NCBI GenBank assembly: GCA_001778275.1
Contig: MFGM01000074.1
Coordinates: 14,814 to 52,114, forward strand
DNA from: Candidatus Falkowbacteria bacterium RIFOXYC2_FULL_48_21
GTDB taxonomy: Bacteria > Patescibacteriota > Patescibacteriia > UBA11705 > JABHMO01
Length of the DNA: 37,301 nt
Direction of reading: 5' to 3'
The position numbers and the translations under genes are program-made. The notes under the pieces were generated by a model, which was not told where the DNA came from, did not search any database, and worked only from the letters and a program-made list of their open reading frames with translations. This document shows, in pieces, positions 11,194 to 21,968 of the stretch (the stretch's first letter is position 1; the number at the start of each line of letters is the position of its first letter).

Positions 11194-13671
11194 ATGGGAG
11201 TATATATAATTTGGACGGTGGTAGTATTTATCGCATATTTGGCCATCCGGTGGCCTTATTTTAAGTTACCAATCAGCGCCGATTCCGGATTCTACGTGTC
11301 CAATGCGACAATCTTGAATAAAAAAATCGATTTTTCCAAAGGCTGGAACGCGAATTATGCCTTCGGTAGCAAATGGCTGGTAGAATATTTTTACAGTTTA
11401 ATTTATTTATGGTTCGGGAACAAAAAATATAAAGCATATTCACGATTGTTTTTTTCGTTTTTTAATTATTTGACCGGAATAACTGTCGGCTTTTGCGCTT
11501 TTTATTTTGTCCAGGAGAGCTTGACGGCTTATCTCGTCGGTTTAACCGTTTACTGCCTGATTTCATCCGAACCTCATTATGGCGTTTATTTTGAAAGTGG
11601 TGATCAGTTCGAGCCGCTGTTTCAAGCGCTGGGTACGCTCTTTTTAATAATCGGCACATCGGTCGCCAATGAATACCTGATCATGCTGGGTATTTTTTGC
11701 TGGTTGGCGAATGCCGTGCTGGTAAAAATATCAGCCTTACTGCCGGCAATCATCGTGACCATCGGCGTTTTGATAGTGAATAGAACTCATTTTGCCACAT
11801 TGGCGCCGCTCATTGCTATTGACATGTTTGCCGGCACTTTGATTTACCTTTGGATTTTAAGCCGGTCGACATTGGGACTCATGATCCGGCTACGAGCTGT
11901 CTTTGGCCATGAAATCGTTGAGAGCCAGACAATCGATGGGAAGGAAAATTTATTGTTTCGTTTCACGCCGTTTTTGCGTTGTTTGCAAAAGACAAAACAG
12001 ACGCTGATAATCATGGCCGTCAACCCCATTATTCCATGTTTGGCTATTTTTGGCCTTGTTTTGACAATGAAAACGGTCAATCCGATTTTACTCACCGTGT
12101 TGATTTGTTTTGCCGCCGTTTTGGCCAAGTTTTACATCAGTCTGACACCGATTTGGTATTATAATATTCCCTTCCTACCATATGTAAGCATTTTTGCCGC
12201 GCAAGCGGTCGTTTCAATGCTATCTAATGTAAATCAAGGTACGTTAATTATTCTCGCATTATTGGTGATTTGGTTCATTCGAAACATACTTTTCGTAAAA
12301 TTTAAAGCTGTCGACCGGCTGGCCAGCTATGTGTGGCATTTTCAGGTTAAAAATAGAGGGGTGGACAGTTATCGAAGCGATTGTGCGGCAGTCGGAATAG
12401 AAAAAATTATCTCGGCTGACAAAACGATGTTACTTTACGGTCACAATGAATTGTATGTGTTAACTGGAAGGAGTTATGCCATTCCATTCAATACGGCGAT
12501 GGGATATATCGCAGATCTTGAGCCTGCGTGGGTAGAAAAATTGCATCGGCAAATGCTGGTCGCTCCGCCGGACTATATTGCTGATACGTTCGGCATCTGT
12601 GACATAATGGCAATCAAAAACAATTTGGGGCTTAATTATCAACAGGTAAAAACCTTTGGCGAGAATAATCAAATTACCCTTTATCGTTTGATTGACCGAC
12701 GCAATGACGATTTCGCGACTAATCTAAACTTTGCCAGTTTAAAAACAACCCAAAAGCATGCCCCCGCAACGCTTGATTGCCCAATGTGCCAATCGCGAAA
12801 TATCAAAAAGTTGTTTACTGATCACAATCGTCGGGACGGAATTGAATGCGCTGGGACGTACTCTCAGTGTTTGATTTGCCAGCATGTTTTTTTATCTGAC
12901 CGACCGACATGGCTTGCAATCGAACATTTTTATTCCACAGTCAATCAGGGTTGTACCGTCAATGAGCGCACTAATAATCTCGATAATCGGCCGCCTTCTT
13001 TGATCAAAAAGACACTGCGACGGTTACGTTTTCGACCCCATTCATGGCCCCTAGCGTCGGCCAATGAACAGAGGAACCGTTTGCTCGATCTTGGTTGTGG
13101 CACGGGGACGAAATTGCTTGAATTCTCTGAGCGTGGGTATCAAATTTGGGGCGTGGATATCAGTCCAGAAGCCATTGAAATCGCTCGTAAGATTTTACCG
13201 CGAGCAAAATTTTTCGTGTCGGAATTAGATAGCGTTGATTTACCCAATGATTATTTTGATTTCATTCGCATCGACAACACCTTAGAGCACGTTGATGATC
13301 CTGAACGATTGATTGCAAGATGTTCTCAGCTTTTACGTCGAAGCGGGGAGCTAATGATTTATGTCCCACACGGTCAAAGTTTTTCCATGCGGGTATTTAA
13401 AGGAAACTCTGTTTCTTCGTGGATTCCTTTCCATCTAAATTTATTTTCGACTAAATCATTGGCGGACCTATTAAGAAAAAATAATTTCAGCCAAGTCAGG
13501 ATTCGCGGCTACTGTCCGCTAACATGGTTGCCGATTAGCATTGTCCAGAGCGGTTTTGGCTCGATACAACGCAGTAAATGGTTAAATATATTATGTTATC
13601 CGTTTGGTTGGCTGTTTTGTCGAATTGGCATGGCCGAGGAATTAGTTGGTATTGGGACAAAAAATGATTGA
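11194..13671 (+). CDS. Fusion protein: N-terminal ~12-TM polytopic membrane domain (GT-C-like?), soluble linker, Cys4 zinc ribbon, and C-terminal class I SAM methyltransferase
   Basis: 825 aa. Amino acids 1 to about 372 are hydrophobic helices, with DSGFY (nt 11281-11295) in the first loop. CPMC (12778-12789) and CLIC (12868-12879) form a zinc-ribbon-like pair. The methyltransferase part has motif I LLDLGCGTG (13081-13107), VDISPEAIE and FDFIRIDNTLEHVDDP. Confidence 0.7.
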   Translation: MGVYIIWTVVVFIAYLAIRWPYFKLPISADSGFYVSNATILNKKIDFSKGWNANYAFGSKWLVEYFYSLIYLWFGNKKYKAYSRLFFSFFNYLTGITVGFCAFYFVQESLTAYLVGLTVYCLISSEPHYGVYFESGDQFEPLFQALGTLFLIIGTSVANEYLIMLGIFCWLANAVLVKISALLPAIIVTIGVLIVNRTHFATLAPLIAIDMFAGTLIYLWILSRSTLGLMIRLRAVFGHEIVESQTIDGKENLLFRFTPFLRCLQKTKQTLIIMAVNPIIPCLAIFGLVLTMKTVNPILLTVLICFAAVLAKFYISLTPIWYYNIPFLPYVSIFAAQAVVSMLSNVNQGTLIILALLVIWFIRNILFVKFKAVDRLASYVWHFQVKNRGVDSYRSDCAAVGIEKIISADKTMLLYGHNELYVLTGRSYAIPFNTAMGYIADLEPAWVEKLHRQMLVAPPDYIADTFGICDIMAIKNNLGLNYQQVKTFGENNQITLYRLIDRRNDDFATNLNFASLKTTQKHAPATLDCPMCQSRNIKKLFTDHNRRDGIECAGTYSQCLICQHVFLSDRPTWLAIEHFYSTVNQGCTVNERTNNLDNRPPSLIKKTLRRLRFRPHSWPLASANEQRNRLLDLGCGTGTKLLEFSERGYQIWGVDISPEAIEIARKILPRAKFFVSELDSVDLPNDYFDFIRIDNTLEHVDDPERLIARCSQLLRRSGELMIYVPHGQSFSMRVFKGNSVSSWIPFHLNLFSTKSLADLLRKNNFSQVRIRGYCPLTWLPISIVQSGFGSIQRSKWLNILCYPFGWLFCRIGMAEELVGIGTKND

Positions 13672-15064
13672 ATTATTGAGTAAAACAAACCGAATATCGC
13701 AACGCGGGCTGATCTGGAGCTTTCTCGTTATTTGGGCGCTTGGCGTTGCAATCTTCTGGCCGGGGGAAGAGCCGGCCAAGGTCAACACGCTACTGGTTGT
13801 GGGAATAGTATTTGTTTTGGCATATTTAATCATCGCCTATGCCGCTAAATCAAAAATCATTACGTCAAAAATTTATTGGATGGTCGCTTTTTTGGTGATG
13901 ATGACCTTGGTGGCGATTGTCTTGCAGTTTGTACTAACCGTTTCCGATATCGGCCACCGCGACATTGATGGCTTTGATCCAATTCGCTATGACTATGATG
14001 CCAAGGCGGCCGTGGAGAGCGGTTTGGATTTTACGGCCGCTAAGGGCAGTTATAATTTTCTTGGTGTAATTTATTATATTGCGGGCATCTATTGGATGTT
14101 TGGAATAAGTACTTTTTACGTCAGCCTATTTAATCTGTTATTCGTCTTGGTCGGCTTTTTGGCGGTAACAAAAATTTTGATCGATCAAACGGGCGAAGTC
14201 CGGCCGTGGCAAAAAATGGCGTGGGGAATGCTGATTCCCAGCGTTTTATATTATGCCGCCCTTCCGTCCAAGGATATTCTTGCGATGTCATTAATAGCAT
14301 TGATCCTGTGCCTCGTGAGCATACTATTACGAAAACGAAGTTTAAAATTATTTTTGTTCTTGGCCATCAGTTGCACCGGATTGATAATGATTAGAGCCAG
14401 TGCGCTGATTATTGTTGCGATTGTTAGCACCTTTATCATATTCTCTGTCAAAAAGAATAAGCGGCTAGTGCTTTACGCCCTAATTTTACTGGTGGTCGTT
14501 TCCTTGCTCGCTGTCCAATGCGCACCGGTAATAACCAAATTATTGGGTGGCACGCCGTTTAGTGTTTCGAAATTGTTCTCACTACAACCGAAGATTAAAA
14601 TGGCGGAGGAATTGAGCGCGACGGGGTCGTTGAATTTACTATTTATGCCAAGGACGTATGTTCAGGTGGCGCTCTTTATGCCCATCCGAGCATTGTTTTT
14701 TCTTATATCGCCATTTCCAAACGTTTGGATCTGGGGCGGATTGGCAAAAATAAGGTTTGATGTTTTGAGTTTATGGCTTATTTTGTTTTTTGCGCCCGCC
14801 TTGATCGCCGCTACCATATCAAAAAATATTCGCCGCCTAAAAGTATATAATTTCATAGTTATCCCTTTCTGGCTGATGATTTTTACGATTGCGACCGCGT
14901 TATTTATTATTCATGAACGTTATCGATTGATGCTTACGCCCTTTTGGCTGGCAACGGTGCTTATTGCGTACCGTTATGGCAAACCAAACCGCTACCTCAT
15001 GCCGAGTTTGTCTTTTATCTTGGCCGGATTAATTACATATGTAATTTTGAAGTTGGTTGTTTAA
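13664..15064 (+). CDS. Polytopic membrane protein, candidate Wzy-like polymerase or GT-C-like transferase
   Basis: The ORF track starts at a TTG (13646). The first ATG is 13664 and overlaps the upstream stop (13669-13671) by 8 nt. The protein has about 12 hydrophobic helices, an acidic/aromatic loop DIDGFDPIRYDYDA after helix 3 and a ~40-aa polar loop (GGTPFSVSKLFSLQPKIKMAEELSATG). I recognise no soluble-domain motif. Confidence 0.55.
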   Translation: MIELLSKTNRISQRGLIWSFLVIWALGVAIFWPGEEPAKVNTLLVVGIVFVLAYLIIAYAAKSKIITSKIYWMVAFLVMMTLVAIVLQFVLTVSDIGHRDIDGFDPIRYDYDAKAAVESGLDFTAAKGSYNFLGVIYYIAGIYWMFGISTFYVSLFNLLFVLVGFLAVTKILIDQTGEVRPWQKMAWGMLIPSVLYYAALPSKDILAMSLIALILCLVSILLRKRSLKLFLFLAISCTGLIMIRASALIIVAIVSTFIIFSVKKNKRLVLYALILLVVVSLLAVQCAPVITKLLGGTPFSVSKLFSLQPKIKMAEELSATGSLNLLFMPRTYVQVALFMPIRALFFLISPFPNVWIWGGLAKIRFDVLSLWLILFFAPALIAATISKNIRRLKVYNFIVIPFWLMIFTIATALFIIHERYRLMLTPFWLATVLIAYRYGKPNRYLMPSLSFILAGLITYVILKLVV

Positions 15065-15137
15065 TTAAGCGGGGTGCCGTCTATCTTCAGTCGGTAGCAG
15101 TCAACGCCTCGTGTCATCGTCAAAATAAGCAAATCAA

Positions 15138-15914
15138 ATGAACAAGTTGAATGCATTATTTCATTTATTGCCTCGCAATAGCCAGTTGTTATATCGTTTT
15201 TGTCGTAAATATGCCAATCGTTATAATGGTGAAAATGATAACAACATATTAACAAACGGTGAAGTTAATCTTTTGAAAAATTATTTACCCACGTGCCAGA
15301 CGGTTTTCGACGTTGGCTCGCATTTTGGCAGCTGGTCTCGGTTGGCGCTGGCTGTAAAATCAGATATTTCATTGCATTGCTTTGAGCCGAGTTGGAGCAC
15401 ATTTCAGCGGCTTGACGGCAGTCTTTCGCCGAAGACACTATATAATAATTTTGGGCTCGGGCGCGAGCAAGGCACTCGACCATATTACATTTTCGCCGAT
15501 TGCGCCACGACCAACTCTCTTTTTCTGAGAAAAGGATTGGAAGATGGTTGGGGAAAAAAGATGACAAATCGAACGGAAACGGTGTTGATTCGCACGCTGG
15601 ATGATTATTGTCGAGAAAAAAATATTGCCCGCATTGATTTTTTAAAAATTGATACCGAGGGGGGCGAATACGACATTTTATGCGGCGCACGCCAGATGCT
15701 GAGCCAAAATGCTATTGGCATAGTGCAATTCGAATACGGCGGTTGCTTTATTGACGCGCACATATTGCTCAAAGACGTTTTTGAGTATTTTGAACAATTT
15801 CCTCGATATAAATTGTTTAAAATTTTCCCGAACGAAATGAAGATGATCGTCCGTTATGATCAACGTTTGGAAAATTTTCAATATGCCAATTACGTCGCCA
15901 TGATACAAGATTAA
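15138..15914 (+). CDS. FkbM-family SAM-dependent methyltransferase
   Basis: 258 aa. Motifs: VFDVGSHFGSWS and the FkbM hallmark IDFLKIDTEGGEYDILCGA. Confidence 0.88.
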   Translation: MNKLNALFHLLPRNSQLLYRFCRKYANRYNGENDNNILTNGEVNLLKNYLPTCQTVFDVGSHFGSWSRLALAVKSDISLHCFEPSWSTFQRLDGSLSPKTLYNNFGLGREQGTRPYYIFADCATTNSLFLRKGLEDGWGKKMTNRTETVLIRTLDDYCREKNIARIDFLKIDTEGGEYDILCGARQMLSQNAIGIVQFEYGGCFIDAHILLKDVFEYFEQFPRYKLFKIFPNEMKMIVRYDQRLENFQYANYVAMIQD

Positions 15915-15923
15915 ATTTCCGCT

Positions 15924-17108
15924 ATGTCGATTAAGGAAACGCTTAAAAAAATATCATTGATCAATGACTTAAACGCCGCTTTCAAGGCGCGTTGTCAAGA
16001 ACGTCTGGCTCGGATCGAATTGCAACATTATTGGGGCATGGCCGAACGGGCGGGGATCAAAATTTTGGACAAGACACAGATTGCGGTGGCGCTACGAGCG
16101 CGTTTTGCGGCGCGCGGAATTAGCGTGACTGCAAAACCGGTCGGGCAACTCAATCTTTATTTCGTCTGCGGCATAAATAATTGGGAAGCGGCTTTGCCGA
16201 TTGCACTATGTAAATTCGGTACGGTTCATTTGTTTGATTGGCGGGCCCAAGGATTTGACCTTCAAGACAAACAGCACCAAAAGGAGCGCGCCGCGTTGAA
16301 CCGGGCGTTGTTGATTGACTTGCGCCAAGCACATAAACAACACCGAATTGATTTGCTGATCGGTTATTTTACCGACAAGGTCATTCTGCCGGAAACTTTG
16401 ATGGAAATATCAAGGCTGGGTATTCCCCTATGTAATTTTGATCTGGATGATAAACTGTGGTTCAAAAATGTCAAAAATTTGGTTTCAGCCATTGACCTCA
16501 ATCTAACCAACGCACCAGAATGTTTGGTCAAATATTTTGCCTGCGGGGGATTGGCAATGTTCTGGCCGGAGGCGGCCGATCCAGAAATACATAAAGCATA
16601 TGACGTGCCGTTTAAATATGATGTGTCTTTTGTCGGGAAAAAATATGGTTATAGGCCAAAATTTATTGAACGGTTGAGACAACGCGGAATTATGATCAAA
16701 ACGTTTGGAGAGGGGTGGGGAGGCGAGCGACTGACAAATGATGCGGTTATTAAACTATATTCTGAAAGCCGAATCAATTTGGGATTTGGTGGCGTCGGTC
16801 ACTCGCACCAGGTGTTTTGTCTCAAGGGGCGCGACTTTGAAGTGCCTATGAGCAGCGGTTTATATTTGACGCAAGACAATCCGGAGCTGGCGTTAGTGTA
16901 TAAAATTGGTGAGGAGATTTTAACGTATCATGACGCAACGGATTGTGCGAATATAATACAGCATTACCTAAATCATCCAGAGGACGCGGCCAAGGTGCGA
17001 AACGCCGGTTATGAACGGGCGTTTCGGGAACACAAATGGGAAGATAGATTTAGAGATCTTTTTTGTCTAATGGGATCAATAAACTTATGCACTCGCTTAA
17101 AATATTAA
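15924..17108 (+). CDS. CgeB-like glycosyltransferase (DUF3880 / Glyco_trans_1_2-type), paralog 1
   Basis: 394 aa. The C-terminal region VSFVGKKYGYRPKFI...LKGRDFEVPMSSGLYLTQDNPELALVYKIGEEILTYHD...AAKVRNAGYERAFREHKWEDR resembles the CgeB family. It shares the FE(V/I)P block with the products of 19691 and 20859. Confidence 0.7.
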   Translation: MSIKETLKKISLINDLNAAFKARCQERLARIELQHYWGMAERAGIKILDKTQIAVALRARFAARGISVTAKPVGQLNLYFVCGINNWEAALPIALCKFGTVHLFDWRAQGFDLQDKQHQKERAALNRALLIDLRQAHKQHRIDLLIGYFTDKVILPETLMEISRLGIPLCNFDLDDKLWFKNVKNLVSAIDLNLTNAPECLVKYFACGGLAMFWPEAADPEIHKAYDVPFKYDVSFVGKKYGYRPKFIERLRQRGIMIKTFGEGWGGERLTNDAVIKLYSESRINLGFGGVGHSHQVFCLKGRDFEVPMSSGLYLTQDNPELALVYKIGEEILTYHDATDCANIIQHYLNHPEDAAKVRNAGYERAFREHKWEDRFRDLFCLMGSINLCTRLKY

Positions 17109-18394
17109 TTTTAGATGCCAATACTACTTATCACATTGGTAATACGGCATTACTTGATAGTAGTTTAGCGCAATTAAAAGCGGGTTTCCCGGACGCTCGG
17201 TTTACCATTTTGGCGTTTGATCCGGTGTCCATCGCGCAGATGTTCGATCAATATGAGGTGCGCGAGTGTTTGTGGGCAAAACCATTTTCCGGTTTTTCTC
17301 GCTGGCGCAAGATAACGTGGCTAATAGGAGAAAGCGTTTGGGCGTTGGTCAATGCTTTGAATTTTTTATGCAAAAAAAAATTGGGGTTTGGCATAAACCA
17401 TAATGTTTATACTTTTTCGGCCACGAAACAAAAAGTTTTAGCCGCCTACGCGGAAGCGGATATTATTGTTAGTATCAGTGGCGAGATGTTGAGCGGCGCA
17501 AACGTGCGACGCATTGGTTTGTTCTTGTATGGCTACTGGCTTGGACATTTAATGGACAAGGTGGTGGCGATTTTTCCGCAAAGTATGGGGCCGTTTGAAA
17601 AACCGTTAATGAGGATAATGGTGAAATACGTACTCGAACGTTGTGACTTGATTTTACCGCGTGATAAAATCTCGCTCGCCTTTGTCGAGAAATTAAATTT
17701 ACGCAACAACAACGTTCATTTAGTGCCCGATGTTGCGGTAAATCAACTCTACATTCCGCCGGATGAAGCGATGGCCGAGCTTTCAAAAAACGGCTTGTTG
17801 ACCGAGCGACGCCCGATTATTGGCATTACCATATCGAAATTTAAAGATGCTGATTTTGAGCGATATTTTGCCGTCATGCGCGGACTTTGCCTTTTTGTCA
17901 CCAACGAATTGGTCGGTTCAATCATAATTTTTTCTCCCAATATGCCCTATCAGAACGAAGTTGATGATTTATCCGTGGCGACACAACTTTATAACAGTCT
18001 ACCCGAACAAACAAACATTATTATGTTGTCGAAATTGTATAGCGCTCGACAGATAAAGGGCTTGCTGGGCGTTTGCGATGTCTTTGTCACGACCAGGATG
18101 CACGTGGCTATCCTCGCCACGATGAACGAAACGCCCACCATTACCATAAATACTCAGCCAAAATTACGGGGCTACATGGAAATGATCAGCCAAGACGACT
18201 GGTCGTGTGAAATCAAGGCTTTTGATGTTGCCGCGGCGCGTGAAATGTTACAATCAATTTTAAATAAGAGTGCGGCCGTCAAGTCATCGTTGCAACGCGC
18301 AAAGCAAAAAGTCAGCCCAGACGCTTTAGCGGCCACGCGCTATTTGCGCGACGCGTACCAGCGTAAAATCACCAGTCATGATGATAAAAAATAG
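17087..18394 (+). CDS. Polysaccharide pyruvyl transferase family protein
   Basis: The ORF-track start 17063 is a TTG. The first ATG, 17087 (MHSLKILILD...), overlaps the upstream gene by 22 nt. Motifs: ILILDANTTYHIGNTALL at the N-terminus and VFVTTRMHVAILATMNETPTITIN (the R-x-H block typical of PF04230-type enzymes). Confidence 0.85.
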   Translation: MHSLKILILDANTTYHIGNTALLDSSLAQLKAGFPDARFTILAFDPVSIAQMFDQYEVRECLWAKPFSGFSRWRKITWLIGESVWALVNALNFLCKKKLGFGINHNVYTFSATKQKVLAAYAEADIIVSISGEMLSGANVRRIGLFLYGYWLGHLMDKVVAIFPQSMGPFEKPLMRIMVKYVLERCDLILPRDKISLAFVEKLNLRNNNVHLVPDVAVNQLYIPPDEAMAELSKNGLLTERRPIIGITISKFKDADFERYFAVMRGLCLFVTNELVGSIIIFSPNMPYQNEVDDLSVATQLYNSLPEQTNIIMLSKLYSARQIKGLLGVCDVFVTTRMHVAILATMNETPTITINTQPKLRGYMEMISQDDWSCEIKAFDVAAAREMLQSILNKSAAVKSSLQRAKQKVSPDALAATRYLRDAYQRKITSHDDKK

Positions 18395-19694
18395 AAAAAT
18401 CATTCCGACTTTATGTAAGGGGTGCGGCTTGTGCGTCGCGTTGTGTTCGCAATCGGCAATTTCCATGCGACGGGATGAAATCGGTTTGTATGTGCCGCAA
18501 ATCGATCAGGCCGCTTGCATGGATTGCGGCCTTTGCGCAAAGACTTGTCCGGCGGCCAGTGAATACAGAAAGCATATCGTCGCCGACTCGGATATCAGCC
18601 AAACCCTGCTCGGACCGTTTAAAAAAGTTTTTGTCGGCCGGGCCACGGATCTGGATATTCTGAAAAATGCAACGGCTGGCGGAATCGTTACTGCGTTGTT
18701 GACTTCGGCGATGAACAATAAAATTATTGATTCCTGTCTGGAAGTGAAAGCCGATGAGAGTGATCCGTTTAAGTCGCAAGCGGTTATTATTACAAATATT
18801 GAAGATGTTCGTGGCGTTGCCGGTTCACGCTATTTGCCCGTAGAATTAAGCCCCGCGATTAAGAAATTGTGTGTGGATGTGACATTGAAACGAACGGCGA
18901 TTGTGGGACTGCCTTGTCAATTGGCCGGGGTAAATTTAGCAAAAACATTGGTAACTGAGCTGGAACAAAAAATCGCTTTTACGATTGGCTTGTTTTGCAA
19001 ACAAACCAAAGACCTGCGCTTTACGGATTTAATTTTGCGAACAATGAAGTTATCCAAGGAGCAAGTGCGAAACATAAAATATCGTAGCAACGGATGGCCG
19101 GGAGATGTAACCGTTGTATTGAAAAATGGTGAGGTTAAAACCCGCCCCTGCGGCGCATTCAATGCGCTCTGGGGAACGTTGTCCTGCTCTCCCGCCTTTT
19201 GCCTTACATGCACTAATCCACTTGCGGAGACGGCTGATATCGCAATCGGTGACGCGTGGTTGCCGAGATATATTACCTCAAAAAAATGCAGTTCGCTGAT
19301 TGTCATCCGAACGCAAAGAGGAATGGATATAGTCAATCGGGCCGTTGTTGATCAGGTTGTTGAGCTCGAAGAAATTAATCCGGAAGAGGTGTTAGATATT
19401 CAACCAAAATTTATTATTGCAGCAAAAAAAAATAATTATCAGGCCCGGCTTAAGGTTTTAAGATTCTTTTATAAGGATGTTCACTCTTTGCCTACCGATT
19501 ACGCGACGACAATAAACCGTGGTAGCCGGCTCGAAGCTTGGTGGGTCTACCTTGTTCGTGTGATTTCTTCGAGCGCTCTATTTCGTCACGTCTATCGCTA
19601 TTTCCCGAAATGGCTTTTGCAAATAATGAGCGGATTTTGTCTGAGAGCATGGCGTACTATTTACTCGCGCACCAAACCAAACATTGATATATGA
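18378..19694 (+). CDS. FrhB/FdhB-like (coenzyme F420 hydrogenase/dehydrogenase beta-subunit family) protein with an N-terminal 2x[4Fe-4S] ferredoxin domain
   Basis: 438 aa. CKGCGLCVALC (18414-18446) and CMDCGLCAKTCP (18516-18551) are followed by FrhB-like blocks (ATAGGIVTALL, VGLPCQLAG, GLFCKQ). It overlaps the upstream gene by 17 nt and the downstream gene by ATGA. Confidence 0.8.
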   Translation: MMIKNRKIIPTLCKGCGLCVALCSQSAISMRRDEIGLYVPQIDQAACMDCGLCAKTCPAASEYRKHIVADSDISQTLLGPFKKVFVGRATDLDILKNATAGGIVTALLTSAMNNKIIDSCLEVKADESDPFKSQAVIITNIEDVRGVAGSRYLPVELSPAIKKLCVDVTLKRTAIVGLPCQLAGVNLAKTLVTELEQKIAFTIGLFCKQTKDLRFTDLILRTMKLSKEQVRNIKYRSNGWPGDVTVVLKNGEVKTRPCGAFNALWGTLSCSPAFCLTCTNPLAETADIAIGDAWLPRYITSKKCSSLIVIRTQRGMDIVNRAVVDQVVELEEINPEEVLDIQPKFIIAAKKNNYQARLKVLRFFYKDVHSLPTDYATTINRGSRLEAWWVYLVRVISSSALFRHVYRYFPKWLLQIMSGFCLRAWRTIYSRTKPNIDI

Positions 19695-20836
19695 TAAAAG
19701 AACACAAAGGAACAATTTTATTTGCTGGCAATTTTCAATATCAGTTTCGCGAATTCGCTATGGCGCGAGCGTTGAAAGAATTGGGCTGGCAAATTGAACC
19801 GTTTTCATGGGAAGATTATACCCCGCTGACTTTTATCGGCCGAATTTTATTCAAATATATGCTCGGGCGAACCGTAAAAAGGATTAATGCCGATTTGTTG
19901 TCGATTTGTAAGAGGACTAAACCGGACATTGTATTTTTATGTAGACCAAATTATATCAGCACCGCGACTATTATGGCGCTGAAGTCCCATTGTCGCTTGA
20001 TCGCGACTTGGAATCCGGACAATCCGTTCGGTGGGTATAACTTGAATTCGGCGATGAAATATAAACCGACCGGGATATATCGGTTACTGTTTCCATTGAT
20101 AGTGTGCGAAAAGGCAATCTATTTCAGACGGCTCTGGTCAAAGTTATTGCGTGCCTTACCGCTATATGATATTTGCTTTGTTTATCGGTCGGAAAACATT
20201 GAGAAGTATAAGCAGGCCGGTGTAGAAAAAGTTTACCACCTCCCATCGTTTTATGATCCTGCGCTTCATCGACCAATGACATTGATCGACGCGGACAAAA
20301 AGTGCTATGAACGAGATGTTGTTTTTATCGGTCATTTCGAGCCTGACGGACGAGTGCAATATCTCGAAGCGTTACTCGATAATGACATTAAGTTTCAATT
20401 GTATGGGCAAAGCTGGAATTACTATTTGTCGGCTAAAATCAAAAAAATGTTTTCTGATCCGATTCGCCCGATTTTTGGGATAAACTATACTAAGACGATT
20501 AGCGGTGCAAAAATCGCTTTGTGTTTTCTGTCAAAATTGAATTTAAATCAATATACGCGGCGTTGTTTTGAAATCCCGGCTTGTCGAACGCTTTTGTTAT
20601 GTGAACGCACGCCAAAAATGCAAGAACTGTTTATGGAAGACAGGGAAGCGGTTTATTTTTCCGATCCGCTTGAGCTGGTAGCTAAGGTAAAATATTATCT
20701 GGCACACCCGGCGGAAAGAAACGCAATCGCGGTTGCCGGATACGAGCGCTGCATGTCTTCCGGATATGATGTGGCCAATCGAATGAAAATATGCGATGAA
20801 ATCTTTAATCAGGAGTTGTTTTCGACGACAACGTAG
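19691..20836 (+). CDS. CgeB-like glycosyltransferase, paralog 2
   Basis: 381 aa. Motifs: DVVFIGHFEPDGRVQYL and RRCFEIPACRTLLLCERTPKMQELFMEDREAVYFSDPLELVAKVKYYLAHPAERNAIAVAGYERC. The start forms an ATGA overlap with the upstream stop. Confidence 0.7.
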   Translation: MIKEHKGTILFAGNFQYQFREFAMARALKELGWQIEPFSWEDYTPLTFIGRILFKYMLGRTVKRINADLLSICKRTKPDIVFLCRPNYISTATIMALKSHCRLIATWNPDNPFGGYNLNSAMKYKPTGIYRLLFPLIVCEKAIYFRRLWSKLLRALPLYDICFVYRSENIEKYKQAGVEKVYHLPSFYDPALHRPMTLIDADKKCYERDVVFIGHFEPDGRVQYLEALLDNDIKFQLYGQSWNYYLSAKIKKMFSDPIRPIFGINYTKTISGAKIALCFLSKLNLNQYTRRCFEIPACRTLLLCERTPKMQELFMEDREAVYFSDPLELVAKVKYYLAHPAERNAIAVAGYERCMSSGYDVANRMKICDEIFNQELFSTTT

Positions 20837-20858
20837 TGTGCTTGTTTTTAAATTTAGT

Positions 20859-21968
20859 ATGAAAATATTACTTTTTATCGACAATCCGAGCCAAGACTCG
20901 CTTTACACTTTTTGGGCGAAAGCACTACGTAAACTGGGGCACGAGGTTATTTATTTTGAACAAATGCCGGTTTTGTACGCTCAGCCATGGTTAGCAAAAA
21001 GTAACATTTTGCGTAAAATTTGCCAATGGGGACTGCGCGAAAAGCATCTTTGGGGTATTCGACAAATCTGGCCGATCAAAATTGCTGCTCCGTTAATTAT
21101 TGGGGCGCAGAATAAAATGAACAAAAAATTTATTGAAACGGCTCGCACACTTAAACCGCAATTAATTATTGTGTTGAAGGGTCTCGGCATTTATCCCAAA
21201 ACATTACTGAATATTAAACTGGTGACGGATAGCGTGATTGTTAATTTCAACGGTGATGACCCGCACAACCTTTTTAGCTCCAACCAAAATGTCATTGATT
21301 CTCTGGCGGTATACGATCATGTTTTCACTTGGTCGAAAATGTTGGTGAAGCGTTTAACGGACGACGGAGCGACGCGAGTTCATTATTTACCCTTTGCCGC
21401 CGATGCGGATGTTTATAAAGGCTGTGAAAACCCTACAGCGGAAGAACGTAAAATGTATGGCTCTGATATTGTCTTTGTCGGCACGGGTGATCCGGAGCGT
21501 AAATCTGAATTGGAATCGTTGTCCGATTTGGATCTGGGCATTTGGGGCCCGTATTGGGATCGAAATTGCAAAAAATCACATTTAATGGCACGGCTCAGGG
21601 GTGGGCGAATCGATGTCAATACAATGGCCAAAGTTTATCGCAGTTCAAAGGTGGTTTTAAATTTGATGAGAGAACAGAATTTTTCATCACATAACATGAA
21701 AACGTTTGAAATTCCGTCAATCGGCGCCTTTATGCTGGCACCGCGCACGAGCGAGCACGCCGATTTTTTTGAGGAGGGCAAAGACATTGCCTGTTACGGA
21801 TCAGCGCATGAGCTACGAGAAAAAGCGATTTACTTCATTGCACATGACGCCGAACGTGCGGCAATGGCCAAATCGGCCCATGAAAAAACGCTTCGCTACC
21901 ATACCTACATTCAACGGATGACGGAATTGCTACGTTTAATCGCGCTTGAACAACCGCCTCGCGCCTAA
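20859..21968 (+). CDS. CgeB-like glycosyltransferase, paralog 3
   Basis: The ORF-track ATG 20796 would overlap the upstream gene by 41 nt. The in-frame ATG 20859 (MKILLFIDN...), 22 nt after the upstream stop, is preferred. Motifs: DIVFVGTGDPERKSEL and MKTFEIPSIGAFMLAPRTSEHADFFEEGKDIACYGSAHELREKAIYFIAHDAERAAMAKSAHEK. Confidence 0.7.
   Translation: MKILLFIDNPSQDSLYTFWAKALRKLGHEVIYFEQMPVLYAQPWLAKSNILRKICQWGLREKHLWGIRQIWPIKIAAPLIIGAQNKMNKKFIETARTLKPQLIIVLKGLGIYPKTLLNIKLVTDSVIVNFNGDDPHNLFSSNQNVIDSLAVYDHVFTWSKMLVKRLTDDGATRVHYLPFAADADVYKGCENPTAEERKMYGSDIVFVGTGDPERKSELESLSDLDLGIWGPYWDRNCKKSHLMARLRGGRIDVNTMAKVYRSSKVVLNLMREQNFSSHNMKTFEIPSIGAFMLAPRTSEHADFFEEGKDIACYGSAHELREKAIYFIAHDAERAAMAKSAHEKTLRYHTYIQRMTELLRLIALEQPPRA

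Follow-up and report, generated by a model that had tools for sequence, protein, structure and literature searches.

Lactic-acid ethers outside of muramic acid have been known for decades from the O antigens of Shigella and Escherichia coli, the capsules of Klebsiella, and the exopolysaccharides of cyanobacteria and mycobacteria, where they contribute charge and serve as antigenic determinants. Which enzymes make them is the question raised by the locus described here, a stretch of 37,301 nucleotides from the genome of Candidatus Falkowbacteria bacterium RIFOXYC2_FULL_48_21 (contig MFGM01000074.1, positions 14,814 to 52,114; hereafter "the window"), in which the gene of a polysaccharide pyruvyl transferase family protein (PvT) overlaps the gene of an FrhB-like iron-sulfur flavoprotein. 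In the literature that we searched, we found no enzyme assignment for non-murein lactyl ethers, aside from a 2006 paper on Shigella boydii 17 that, going by its title, reportedly confirmed two new genes for glucolactilic acid. With this same exception, that literature also bears out the statement in an original prediction, made from the letters of the window alone, that the redox partner of the PvT had no assigned function.

We propose that the PvT and the FrhB-like protein probably form a two-enzyme module that adds a 1-carboxyethyl (lactyl) ether to a sugar of the polymer encoded by this locus. A two-step lactyl modification of this kind had been put forward in the original prediction, and it is now supported comparatively by the genomic linkage and natural fusions of the two genes, the lack of F420 synthesis genes in genomes that carry them, the clustering of such PvTs in a phylogenetic tree, and the distribution of O-lactyl sugars among Klebsiella capsule types. 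Taken together, these lines of evidence make a pathway with the logic of MurA and MurB the best-supported explanation of the pair.

Linkage of FrhB-like genes to pyruvyl transferase genes

Scanning one genome per species for relatives of the FrhB-like protein gave 561 matches, and we used the best 80 loci, whose hosts include Bathyarchaeia, Methanosarcina, Methanoperedens, Dehalococcoidia, Planctomycetota, Clostridia, small-genome bacteria, and others. A gene of family PF04230, to which the PvT belongs, lies at most 150 nt away in 62 of these 80 loci, in either order and on either strand, and 5 further loci encode the FrhB-like protein and the PvT as a fusion in a single open reading frame (ORF). 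The remainder comprises 6 loci with a PvT gene within 5 kb, 5 that are ended by a contig edge, and 2 without a PvT gene. Pfam confirmed PF04230 in each of the 57 neighbors that were submitted to it. A published survey of archaeal gene fusions does not mention a fusion of FrhB-like protein and PvT (PMC11237513).

The same linkage is seen within the host's own phylum, Patescibacteriota, from which we sampled 301 genomes of about 0.6–1.7 Mb. PF04432, one of the two families that define the body of the FrhB-like protein, was found above cut-off in 7 of them with one gene each, and this gene adjoins or is fused to a PF04230 gene in all 7 cases, including two fusions of 838–840 aa. Conversely, PF04230 is present in 47 of the 301 genomes, so that most PvTs of this phylum must work without an FrhB-like partner, while none of the 7 genomes encodes the partner without a PvT. 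The FrhB-like gene and the PvT gene are near-obligate neighbors or fusions, far from what chance would produce. The pairing in unrelated bacteria and archaea that had initially been described is thereby confirmed and quantified (62 of 80 loci within 150 nt plus 5 fused), and the neighborhood statistics that had been suggested as a check show a co-occurrence far above chance, with 7 of 7 in the phylum of the host.

For a tree of the transferases, we combined 105 PF04230 domains, i.e., 67 from partnered or fused proteins of many phyla, 37 from stand-alone proteins of the host's own phylum, and E. coli WcaK. Partner status changes 6 times along this tree, compared to a mean of 31 changes after shuffling, and none of 500 shuffles gave a number as low. 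The partnered PvTs of Patescibacteriota group with partnered PvTs of other phyla and apart from the stand-alone ones of their own phylum, and the window PvT falls in the partnered part. A sample of 20 neighbors of stand-alone PvT genes in the same phylum encodes glycosyltransferases, flippases, methyltransferases, and membrane proteins, and no other redox partner was found among them. This pattern supports the view that partnered PvTs may be functionally specialized, which is less than proof that they make a different product.

A possible molecular correlate of such specialization is found close to the N-terminus of the protein. Residues G18, R192, H339, and P350 of the window PvT are invariant among 57 partnered homologues. 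The Asp of an N-x-G-D motif, which is kept in 83% of the stand-alone PF04230 members and in E. coli WcaK, is missing from the window PvT, where the motif reads H-I-G-N and the position is taken by N19 (residues 18–19 are encoded at 17138–17143), and most partnered PvTs have S, E, A, or N at this position. We consider the residue found there a candidate for the switch between closure of a ketal and release of an enolpyruvyl product.

The two proteins and their predicted reactions

The window PvT matches PF04230 over profile positions 2–279 of 280 with an E-value of 2e-30, and its 107.1 bits are well above the cut-off of 25.3. Its AlphaFold2 (AF2) model (pLDDT 92.4) shows the GT-B (two-Rossmann) fold, and the top Foldseek matches are GT-B enzymes such as WecB-type epimerases as well as GT4 and GT1 glycosyltransferases. 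A sequence search of the PvT against PDB chains gave no match, so that the fold search alone was informative.

The FrhB-like protein scores above the cut-offs of PF04422 (E-value 1e-19, 70.8 bits) and PF04432 (E-value 2e-30, 106.2 bits) in a Pfam scan, with additional Fer4 and Fer4_7 matches that span residues 7–61. An AF2 model built on 30 homologues (pLDDT 89, pTM 0.91) has its best fold matches in the PDB, according to Foldseek, with the F420-reducing modules 8riu_B (E-value 1e-21) and 8rja_E, FrhB (6qii_B, 1e-18), the N-terminal half of the sulfite reductase Fsr, and the plant chlorophyll reductase HCAR, and a profile search of PDB sequences concurs. Across the 30 homologues, the ferredoxin-domain cysteines C13, C16, C19, C23, C47, and C50 are conserved to at least 90%, C53 and C57 are invariant, and so are the body cysteines C180, C207, C275, and C278. 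Profile alignment to 8riu_B matches up the LPCH, LxC, and CxxC positions of the body, and these last four cysteines are the predicted ligand set of a third [4Fe-4S] cluster.

In spite of this resemblance to F420-dependent enzymes, the protein stays under the cut-off of every FrhB and FpoF equivalog model in NCBIfam, scoring 95.8 against 331.5 for frhB (TIGR03289) and 75.6 against 475 for FpoF (NF040616). Searches of the 7 genomes of the host's phylum that carry the pair, including the window genome, which is 79% complete, gave no match to CofE in any of them and nothing above cut-off for CofH, which indicates that F420 is not the substrate of the FrhB-like protein. The window genome encodes the alpha subunit of a 2-oxoacid:ferredoxin oxidoreductase, which could plausibly supply the N-terminal cluster domain with reduced ferredoxin. 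The protein further differs from FrhB in a C-terminal tail of 94 residues, modeled as helices at 344–432, that is found in all 30 aligned homologues. This tail holds 16 K/R compared to 4 D/E as well as 17 aromatic residues and contains the strongest hydrophobic moment of the protein, and such a basic, aromatic-rich segment is possibly an element for docking to the membrane interface or to a partner.

Based on these features, PvT would move the three-carbon unit of phosphoenolpyruvate (PEP) to one sugar hydroxyl. The hydroxyl would add to C2 of PEP with loss of phosphate, a half-reaction that must equally precede ketal closure, and PvT would then release an enolpyruvyl (carboxyvinyl) ether rather than let a second hydroxyl close a cyclic ketal. 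Once this ether is passed to the FrhB-like reductase, low-potential electrons, probably from reduced ferredoxin, would run over the two N-terminal [4Fe-4S] clusters and the third cluster to the flavin, and hydride transfer from the flavin to the C=C bond would give the lactyl ether, i.e., the MurB reaction on another scaffold. As acceptor we would expect an oligosaccharide linked to a membrane lipid, considering the tail with its basic and aromatic residues and the knowledge about other PF04230 enzymes. There are precedents for such chemistry: MurB uses a flavin to reduce an enolpyruvyl ether, BciB, which belongs to the FrhB family, uses ferredoxin to reduce a vinyl C=C bond, and the nitroreductase-fold domain of FbiB turns the enolpyruvyl group of dehydro-F420-0 into a lactyl group during F420 synthesis. 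A reduction of the FbiB type would explain why a nitroreductase can be the alternative partner in Klebsiella K22 and K37 (see below).

We also lean, by a narrower balance of evidence than for the window pair itself, toward a general version of this proposal. In this version, a distinct branch of PF04230 would comprise enolpyruvyl transferases with an obligate FrhB-type enolpyruvyl-ether reductase that is F420-independent and ferredoxin-fed, and the two would constitute a widespread route to non-murein lactyl ethers in bacteria and archaea that is unrelated to MurA and MurB. Nitroreductase-type partners would serve as an alternative second step and perhaps yield the other stereoisomer.

Lactyl sugars in enterobacteria and the choice between explanations

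Outside of the window, the structures of Klebsiella capsules are the most informative. In a table of Klebsiella K antigens, O-lactyl sugars are limited to K22, K37, and K66 (PMC6856556, Table 1), where K66 has beta-Glc-O-lactyl and both K22 and K37 have beta-GlcA-O-lactyl. A survey of 79 capsule loci described pyruvyl-transferase genes in K8, K22, K37, and K66 despite pyruvate-free capsules (PMC4616057). Its Table S2 lists a "coenzyme_F420_hydrogenase" (HG203) together with the pyruvyltransferase gene wcqF in K66 only, and the pyruvyl transferase gene wclZ together with a "nitroreductase" (HG127) in K22 and K37 only; the authors recorded the genes of K22, K37, and K66 as discrepancies and drew no tie to lactyl groups (PMC4616057). 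When the two published data sets are combined, all three O-lactyl types are among the four types with an unexplained pyruvyl-transferase gene, and each of the three has a type-specific redox gene. This correlation of genes and structures is the strongest outside evidence for a lactyl product and suggests that the reaction of partnered PvTs does not stop at a cyclic ketal. The original paper on the K22 structure, going by its title, agrees with a lactyl sugar in this type. A lactyl-rhamnose had been considered for K66 but was rejected, since rhamnose is absent from the tables of genes and structures, which give beta-Glc-O-lactyl in its place.

Partial genetic assignments for lactyl groups exist in Shigella and E. 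coli, where wfeP and a second gene are the glucolactilic-acid genes of E. coli O124/O164, Shigella dysenteriae 3, and S. boydii 17. Lactyl groups of E. coli are found in O58, O124, O146, O69, and O150, and O164, in which wfeP has a frameshift, is without the lactyl group that O124 carries (PMC7685785); the same review places the lactyl step of these O antigens at the level of the UDP-sugar. In Campylobacter species with a pyruvyl-transferase gene in the pgl operon, a sugar of 234 Da was proposed to be glucolactilic acid (2026 preprint). A blastn search with a plasmid-borne Klebsiella relative of the pair (see below) against all complete E. coli genomes gave no match, and E. coli SE15, which had been considered as an O150 strain, turned out to have an O16-type cluster without the pair.

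These data also bear on other explanations of the pair. The PvT could make an ordinary pyruvate ketal while the FrhB-like protein does another redox job on the same glycan or its precursor, such as the reduction of a keto-sugar or work on a different substituent. All characterized PF04230 enzymes, including CsaB and WcaK as the best NCBIfam matches, are ketal-forming, the invariant Arg and His of the family are retained in the window PvT, and the locus encodes many further enzymes for tailoring, among them methyltransferases and radical S-adenosylmethionine (SAM) proteins. Nevertheless, we consider this explanation unlikely, given that in about 90% of loci, across bacteria and archaea and in otherwise unrelated clusters, the partner is a single family of transferases, sometimes fused, which would hardly be expected of a generic redox enzyme of glycans, and that the Klebsiella types with such pairs have no pyruvate ketal (PMC4616057, PMC6856556). 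It seems more doubtful still that the pair makes another PEP-derived product, either by forming a ketal that is then reductively opened or with an oxidative flavoprotein that remodels or removes lactyl or pyruvyl groups. FrhB-family enzymes are reversible hydride carriers, and sequence fixes neither direction nor substrate, but degradation would be out of place in an operon whose overlapping frames encode biosynthetic glycosyltransferases and a flippase. Since reductive opening of a ketal would also yield a 1-carboxyethyl ether, that version is largely a variant of the lactyl-ether module proposed here. We regard it as very improbable that the FrhB-like protein does no catalysis on the glycan and instead controls the PvT as a redox sensor or scaffold. 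Iron-sulfur proteins can be sensors, and nothing more direct speaks for this idea, while even very distant homologues have kept the twelve cluster cysteines and the motifs of the flavin region, the complete catalytic fold of FrhB is retained with high model confidence, and an unrelated nitroreductase family replaces the partner in K22 and K37 (PMC4616057), which argues for a reduction step and not for sensing.

Several points weigh against the two-enzyme lactyl module nonetheless. The Asp of the N-x-G-D motif is still present in about 17% of partnered PvTs, two stand-alone PvTs (one of them beside a contig end) lie inside the partnered part of the tree, and the PvT of a Klebsiella plasmid lies outside of it. 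Sampling for this tree was uneven, with partnered PvTs coming from many phyla and stand-alone ones from a single phylum plus WcaK; considering this and the imperfect clustering, we take the tree as support for specialization and not as proof. The Klebsiella link is built on published annotations of the K66, K22, and K37 genes, and K8, too, has an orphan pyruvyl-transferase gene (PMC4616057). The flavin and the electron donor of the FrhB-like protein are putative and assigned by homology, and the support for the module as a whole is comparative.

Surrounding locus, mobile relatives, and known systems

The coordinates of the pair and its parts are compiled in Table 1.

Table 1. Positions of the PvT/FrhB-like gene pair and its features in the window.
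Feature	Position	Strand	Basis
Polysaccharide pyruvyl transferase family protein (PvT), 435 aa, proposed enolpyruvyl transferase	17087..18394	+	PF04230, GT-B model, tree position
FrhB-like iron-sulfur flavoprotein, 438 aa, proposed enolpyruvyl-ether reductase	18378..19694	+	PF04422, PF04432, Fer4, AF2 model
N-terminal 2x[4Fe-4S] ferredoxin-type domain of FrhB-like protein	18414..18551	+	CxxCxxCxxxC motifs 18414-18446 and 18516-18551
FrhB body: FrhB_FdhB_N (residues 84-162), FrhB_FdhB_C (residues 171-335), SGGIVT motif	18627..19382	+	
C-terminal helical tail of FrhB-like protein, residues 345-438	19410..19691	+	model and composition
Overlap of PvT stop and FrhB-like start, 17 nt, translational coupling	18378..18394	+	sequence
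ATGA overlap of FrhB-like stop and start of next gene (CgeB-like glycosyltransferase)	19691..19694	+	sequence

Re-reading the sequence confirmed the description from which the original prediction had started, i.e., a PF04230-type PvT that overlaps a 438-aa protein by 17 nt, an ATGA overlap of the FrhB-like gene with the next gene at 19691–19694, two 4Fe-4S motifs (CKGCGLCVALC at 18414–18446 and CMDCGLCAKTCP at 18516–18551), and the FrhB-like body motifs GGIVTALL (residues 101–108) and GLPCQLAG (residues 177–184). The PvT ORF, which ends at 18394, could start with TTG at 17063 or ATG at 17087, and the N-termini of homologues agree with the ATG; the overlap of the two genes shrinks to 14 nt if the second ATG of the FrhB-like gene is used. 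On the upstream side, a CgeB-like glycosyltransferase gene shares 22 nt (17087–17108) with the PvT gene.

A family scan of the window proteins shows that the whole window is a single polysaccharide locus with all genes on the same strand. It encodes sugar-nucleotide dehydrogenases, enzymes of GDP-fucose synthesis, an aminotransferase, a WbaP-like initiating transferase, a Wzx-type flippase, and GT-C-like membrane proteins, as well as several methyltransferases and B12-type radical SAM enzymes. Three paralogous CgeB-like glycosyltransferases flank the pair (15924–17108, 19691–20836, and 20796–21968). All three match Glyco_trans_1_2, two of them also DUF3880, and two have counterparts in a gammaproteobacterial metagenome-assembled genome. 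This genome (L002:1942-9287) shares a block of six genes with the window (13646–19694) in near-identical order and with 44–70% protein identity, namely those for a polytopic membrane protein, an FkbM methyltransferase, two CgeB-like glycosyltransferases, the PvT, and the FrhB-like protein. Such identity is high for hosts that are so distant and suggests horizontal transfer of the whole sub-module.

PF04230 domains also occur in other fusions within the host's phylum, such as a 681-aa protein that combines GT2, TPR, and PvT parts (L111:2718-4760) and an 855-aa protein with an N-terminal part of about 470 residues without Pfam match (L120:2095-4659).

FrhB-like proteins of a subtype that is about 470 aa long and lacks the ferredoxin domain are encoded beside PF04230 in a Nostoc strain, where the pair sits in a Wzc-Wzx-type locus, on a Klebsiella plasmid, and on a plasmid of Pseudobutyrivibrio xylanivorans, and all three settings are polysaccharide loci of the Wzx type. 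Further tblastn matches lie on Sinorhizobium megaplasmids and Bacteroidales plasmids. Exopolysaccharides of Nostoc and of the Butyrivibrio group contain lactyl sugars. On the Pseudobutyrivibrio plasmid pNP95 (L083:4930-5983), the PvT is annotated as two overlapping coding sequences and may be frameshifted, and a radical SAM gene directly upstream of the split PvT recalls the radical SAM genes of the window locus. The Klebsiella aerogenes plasmid p35_D (L082; also L086-L093) is a Rop-type plasmid of about 13 kb with Tn3 and insertion sequence elements. Its five-gene glycan cassette encodes a Wzx-like flippase, the ferredoxin-less FrhB-like protein, the PvT, and two GT2 enzymes and looks like a mobile module for the modification of surface glycans. 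Plasmids of this type are listed in 58 index blocks of public assemblies, and the 24 contigs that were read measure 10.8–13.3 kb, with the same cassette in the 8 that are shown. The Klebsiella protein P0121 had been considered as a chromosomal capsule gene, but this was ruled out by its location on the small Rop/Tn3 plasmid, so that it is no stand-in for K66.

The window pair is one more member of a widespread and catalogued system, and the class of its predicted product has been known structurally for decades. Its value would lie in opening the origin of lactyl ethers outside of murein to direct tests, since the pair is compact and sometimes naturally fused. If the proposal holds true, lactyl decoration would become predictable from genomes, with use for serotype and capsule typing and for the interpretation of glycan loci in archaea and uncultured microbes. 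An F420-independent function in glycan tailoring would then be added to the FrhB family, and pyruvyl transferases would have a second possible type of product.

Among known systems, MurA and MurB are closest in their chemistry, with the same proposed logic of enolpyruvyl transfer to a sugar hydroxyl and a subsequent flavin-dependent step in which the C=C bond is reduced and a D-lactyl ether results. Pfam and fold searches indicate no homology, with the PvT having a GT-B fold and not the fold of MurA and EPSP synthase. MurB is an NADPH/FAD enzyme by its fold, whereas the window reductase is an FrhB-type iron-sulfur flavoprotein that probably receives its electrons from ferredoxin, and the acceptor of MurA is UDP-GlcNAc, whereas that of the window pair is probably a lipid-linked glycan. 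Klebsiella K66 (HG203 with wcqF) and K22/K37 (wclZ with HG127) share the pairing of a PvT with a redox enzyme in a Wzx/Wzy locus, a likeness drawn by annotation, while the relative on the Klebsiella plasmid lacks the N-terminal ferredoxin domain of the window protein. From the side of the reductase, the F420-interacting FrhB, FpoF, FdhB, and N-terminal half of Fsr and the ferredoxin-dependent HCAR and BciB resemble the window protein in their fold, in the ligands of the [4Fe-4S] clusters, and in the motifs around the flavin, and FpoF and Fsr additionally have the N-terminal 2x[4Fe-4S] domain. The window protein has a glycan transferase as its partner and not a hydrogenase or dehydrogenase, and its basic 94-residue tail is absent from FrhB. 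From the side of the transferase, the ketal-forming enzymes WcaK and CsaB belong to the same Pfam family as the window PvT and have its GT-B fold and conserved Arg and His, but WcaK has kept the Asp of the N-x-G-D motif, whereas the window PvT is without it and stands in the reductase-partnered part of the tree.

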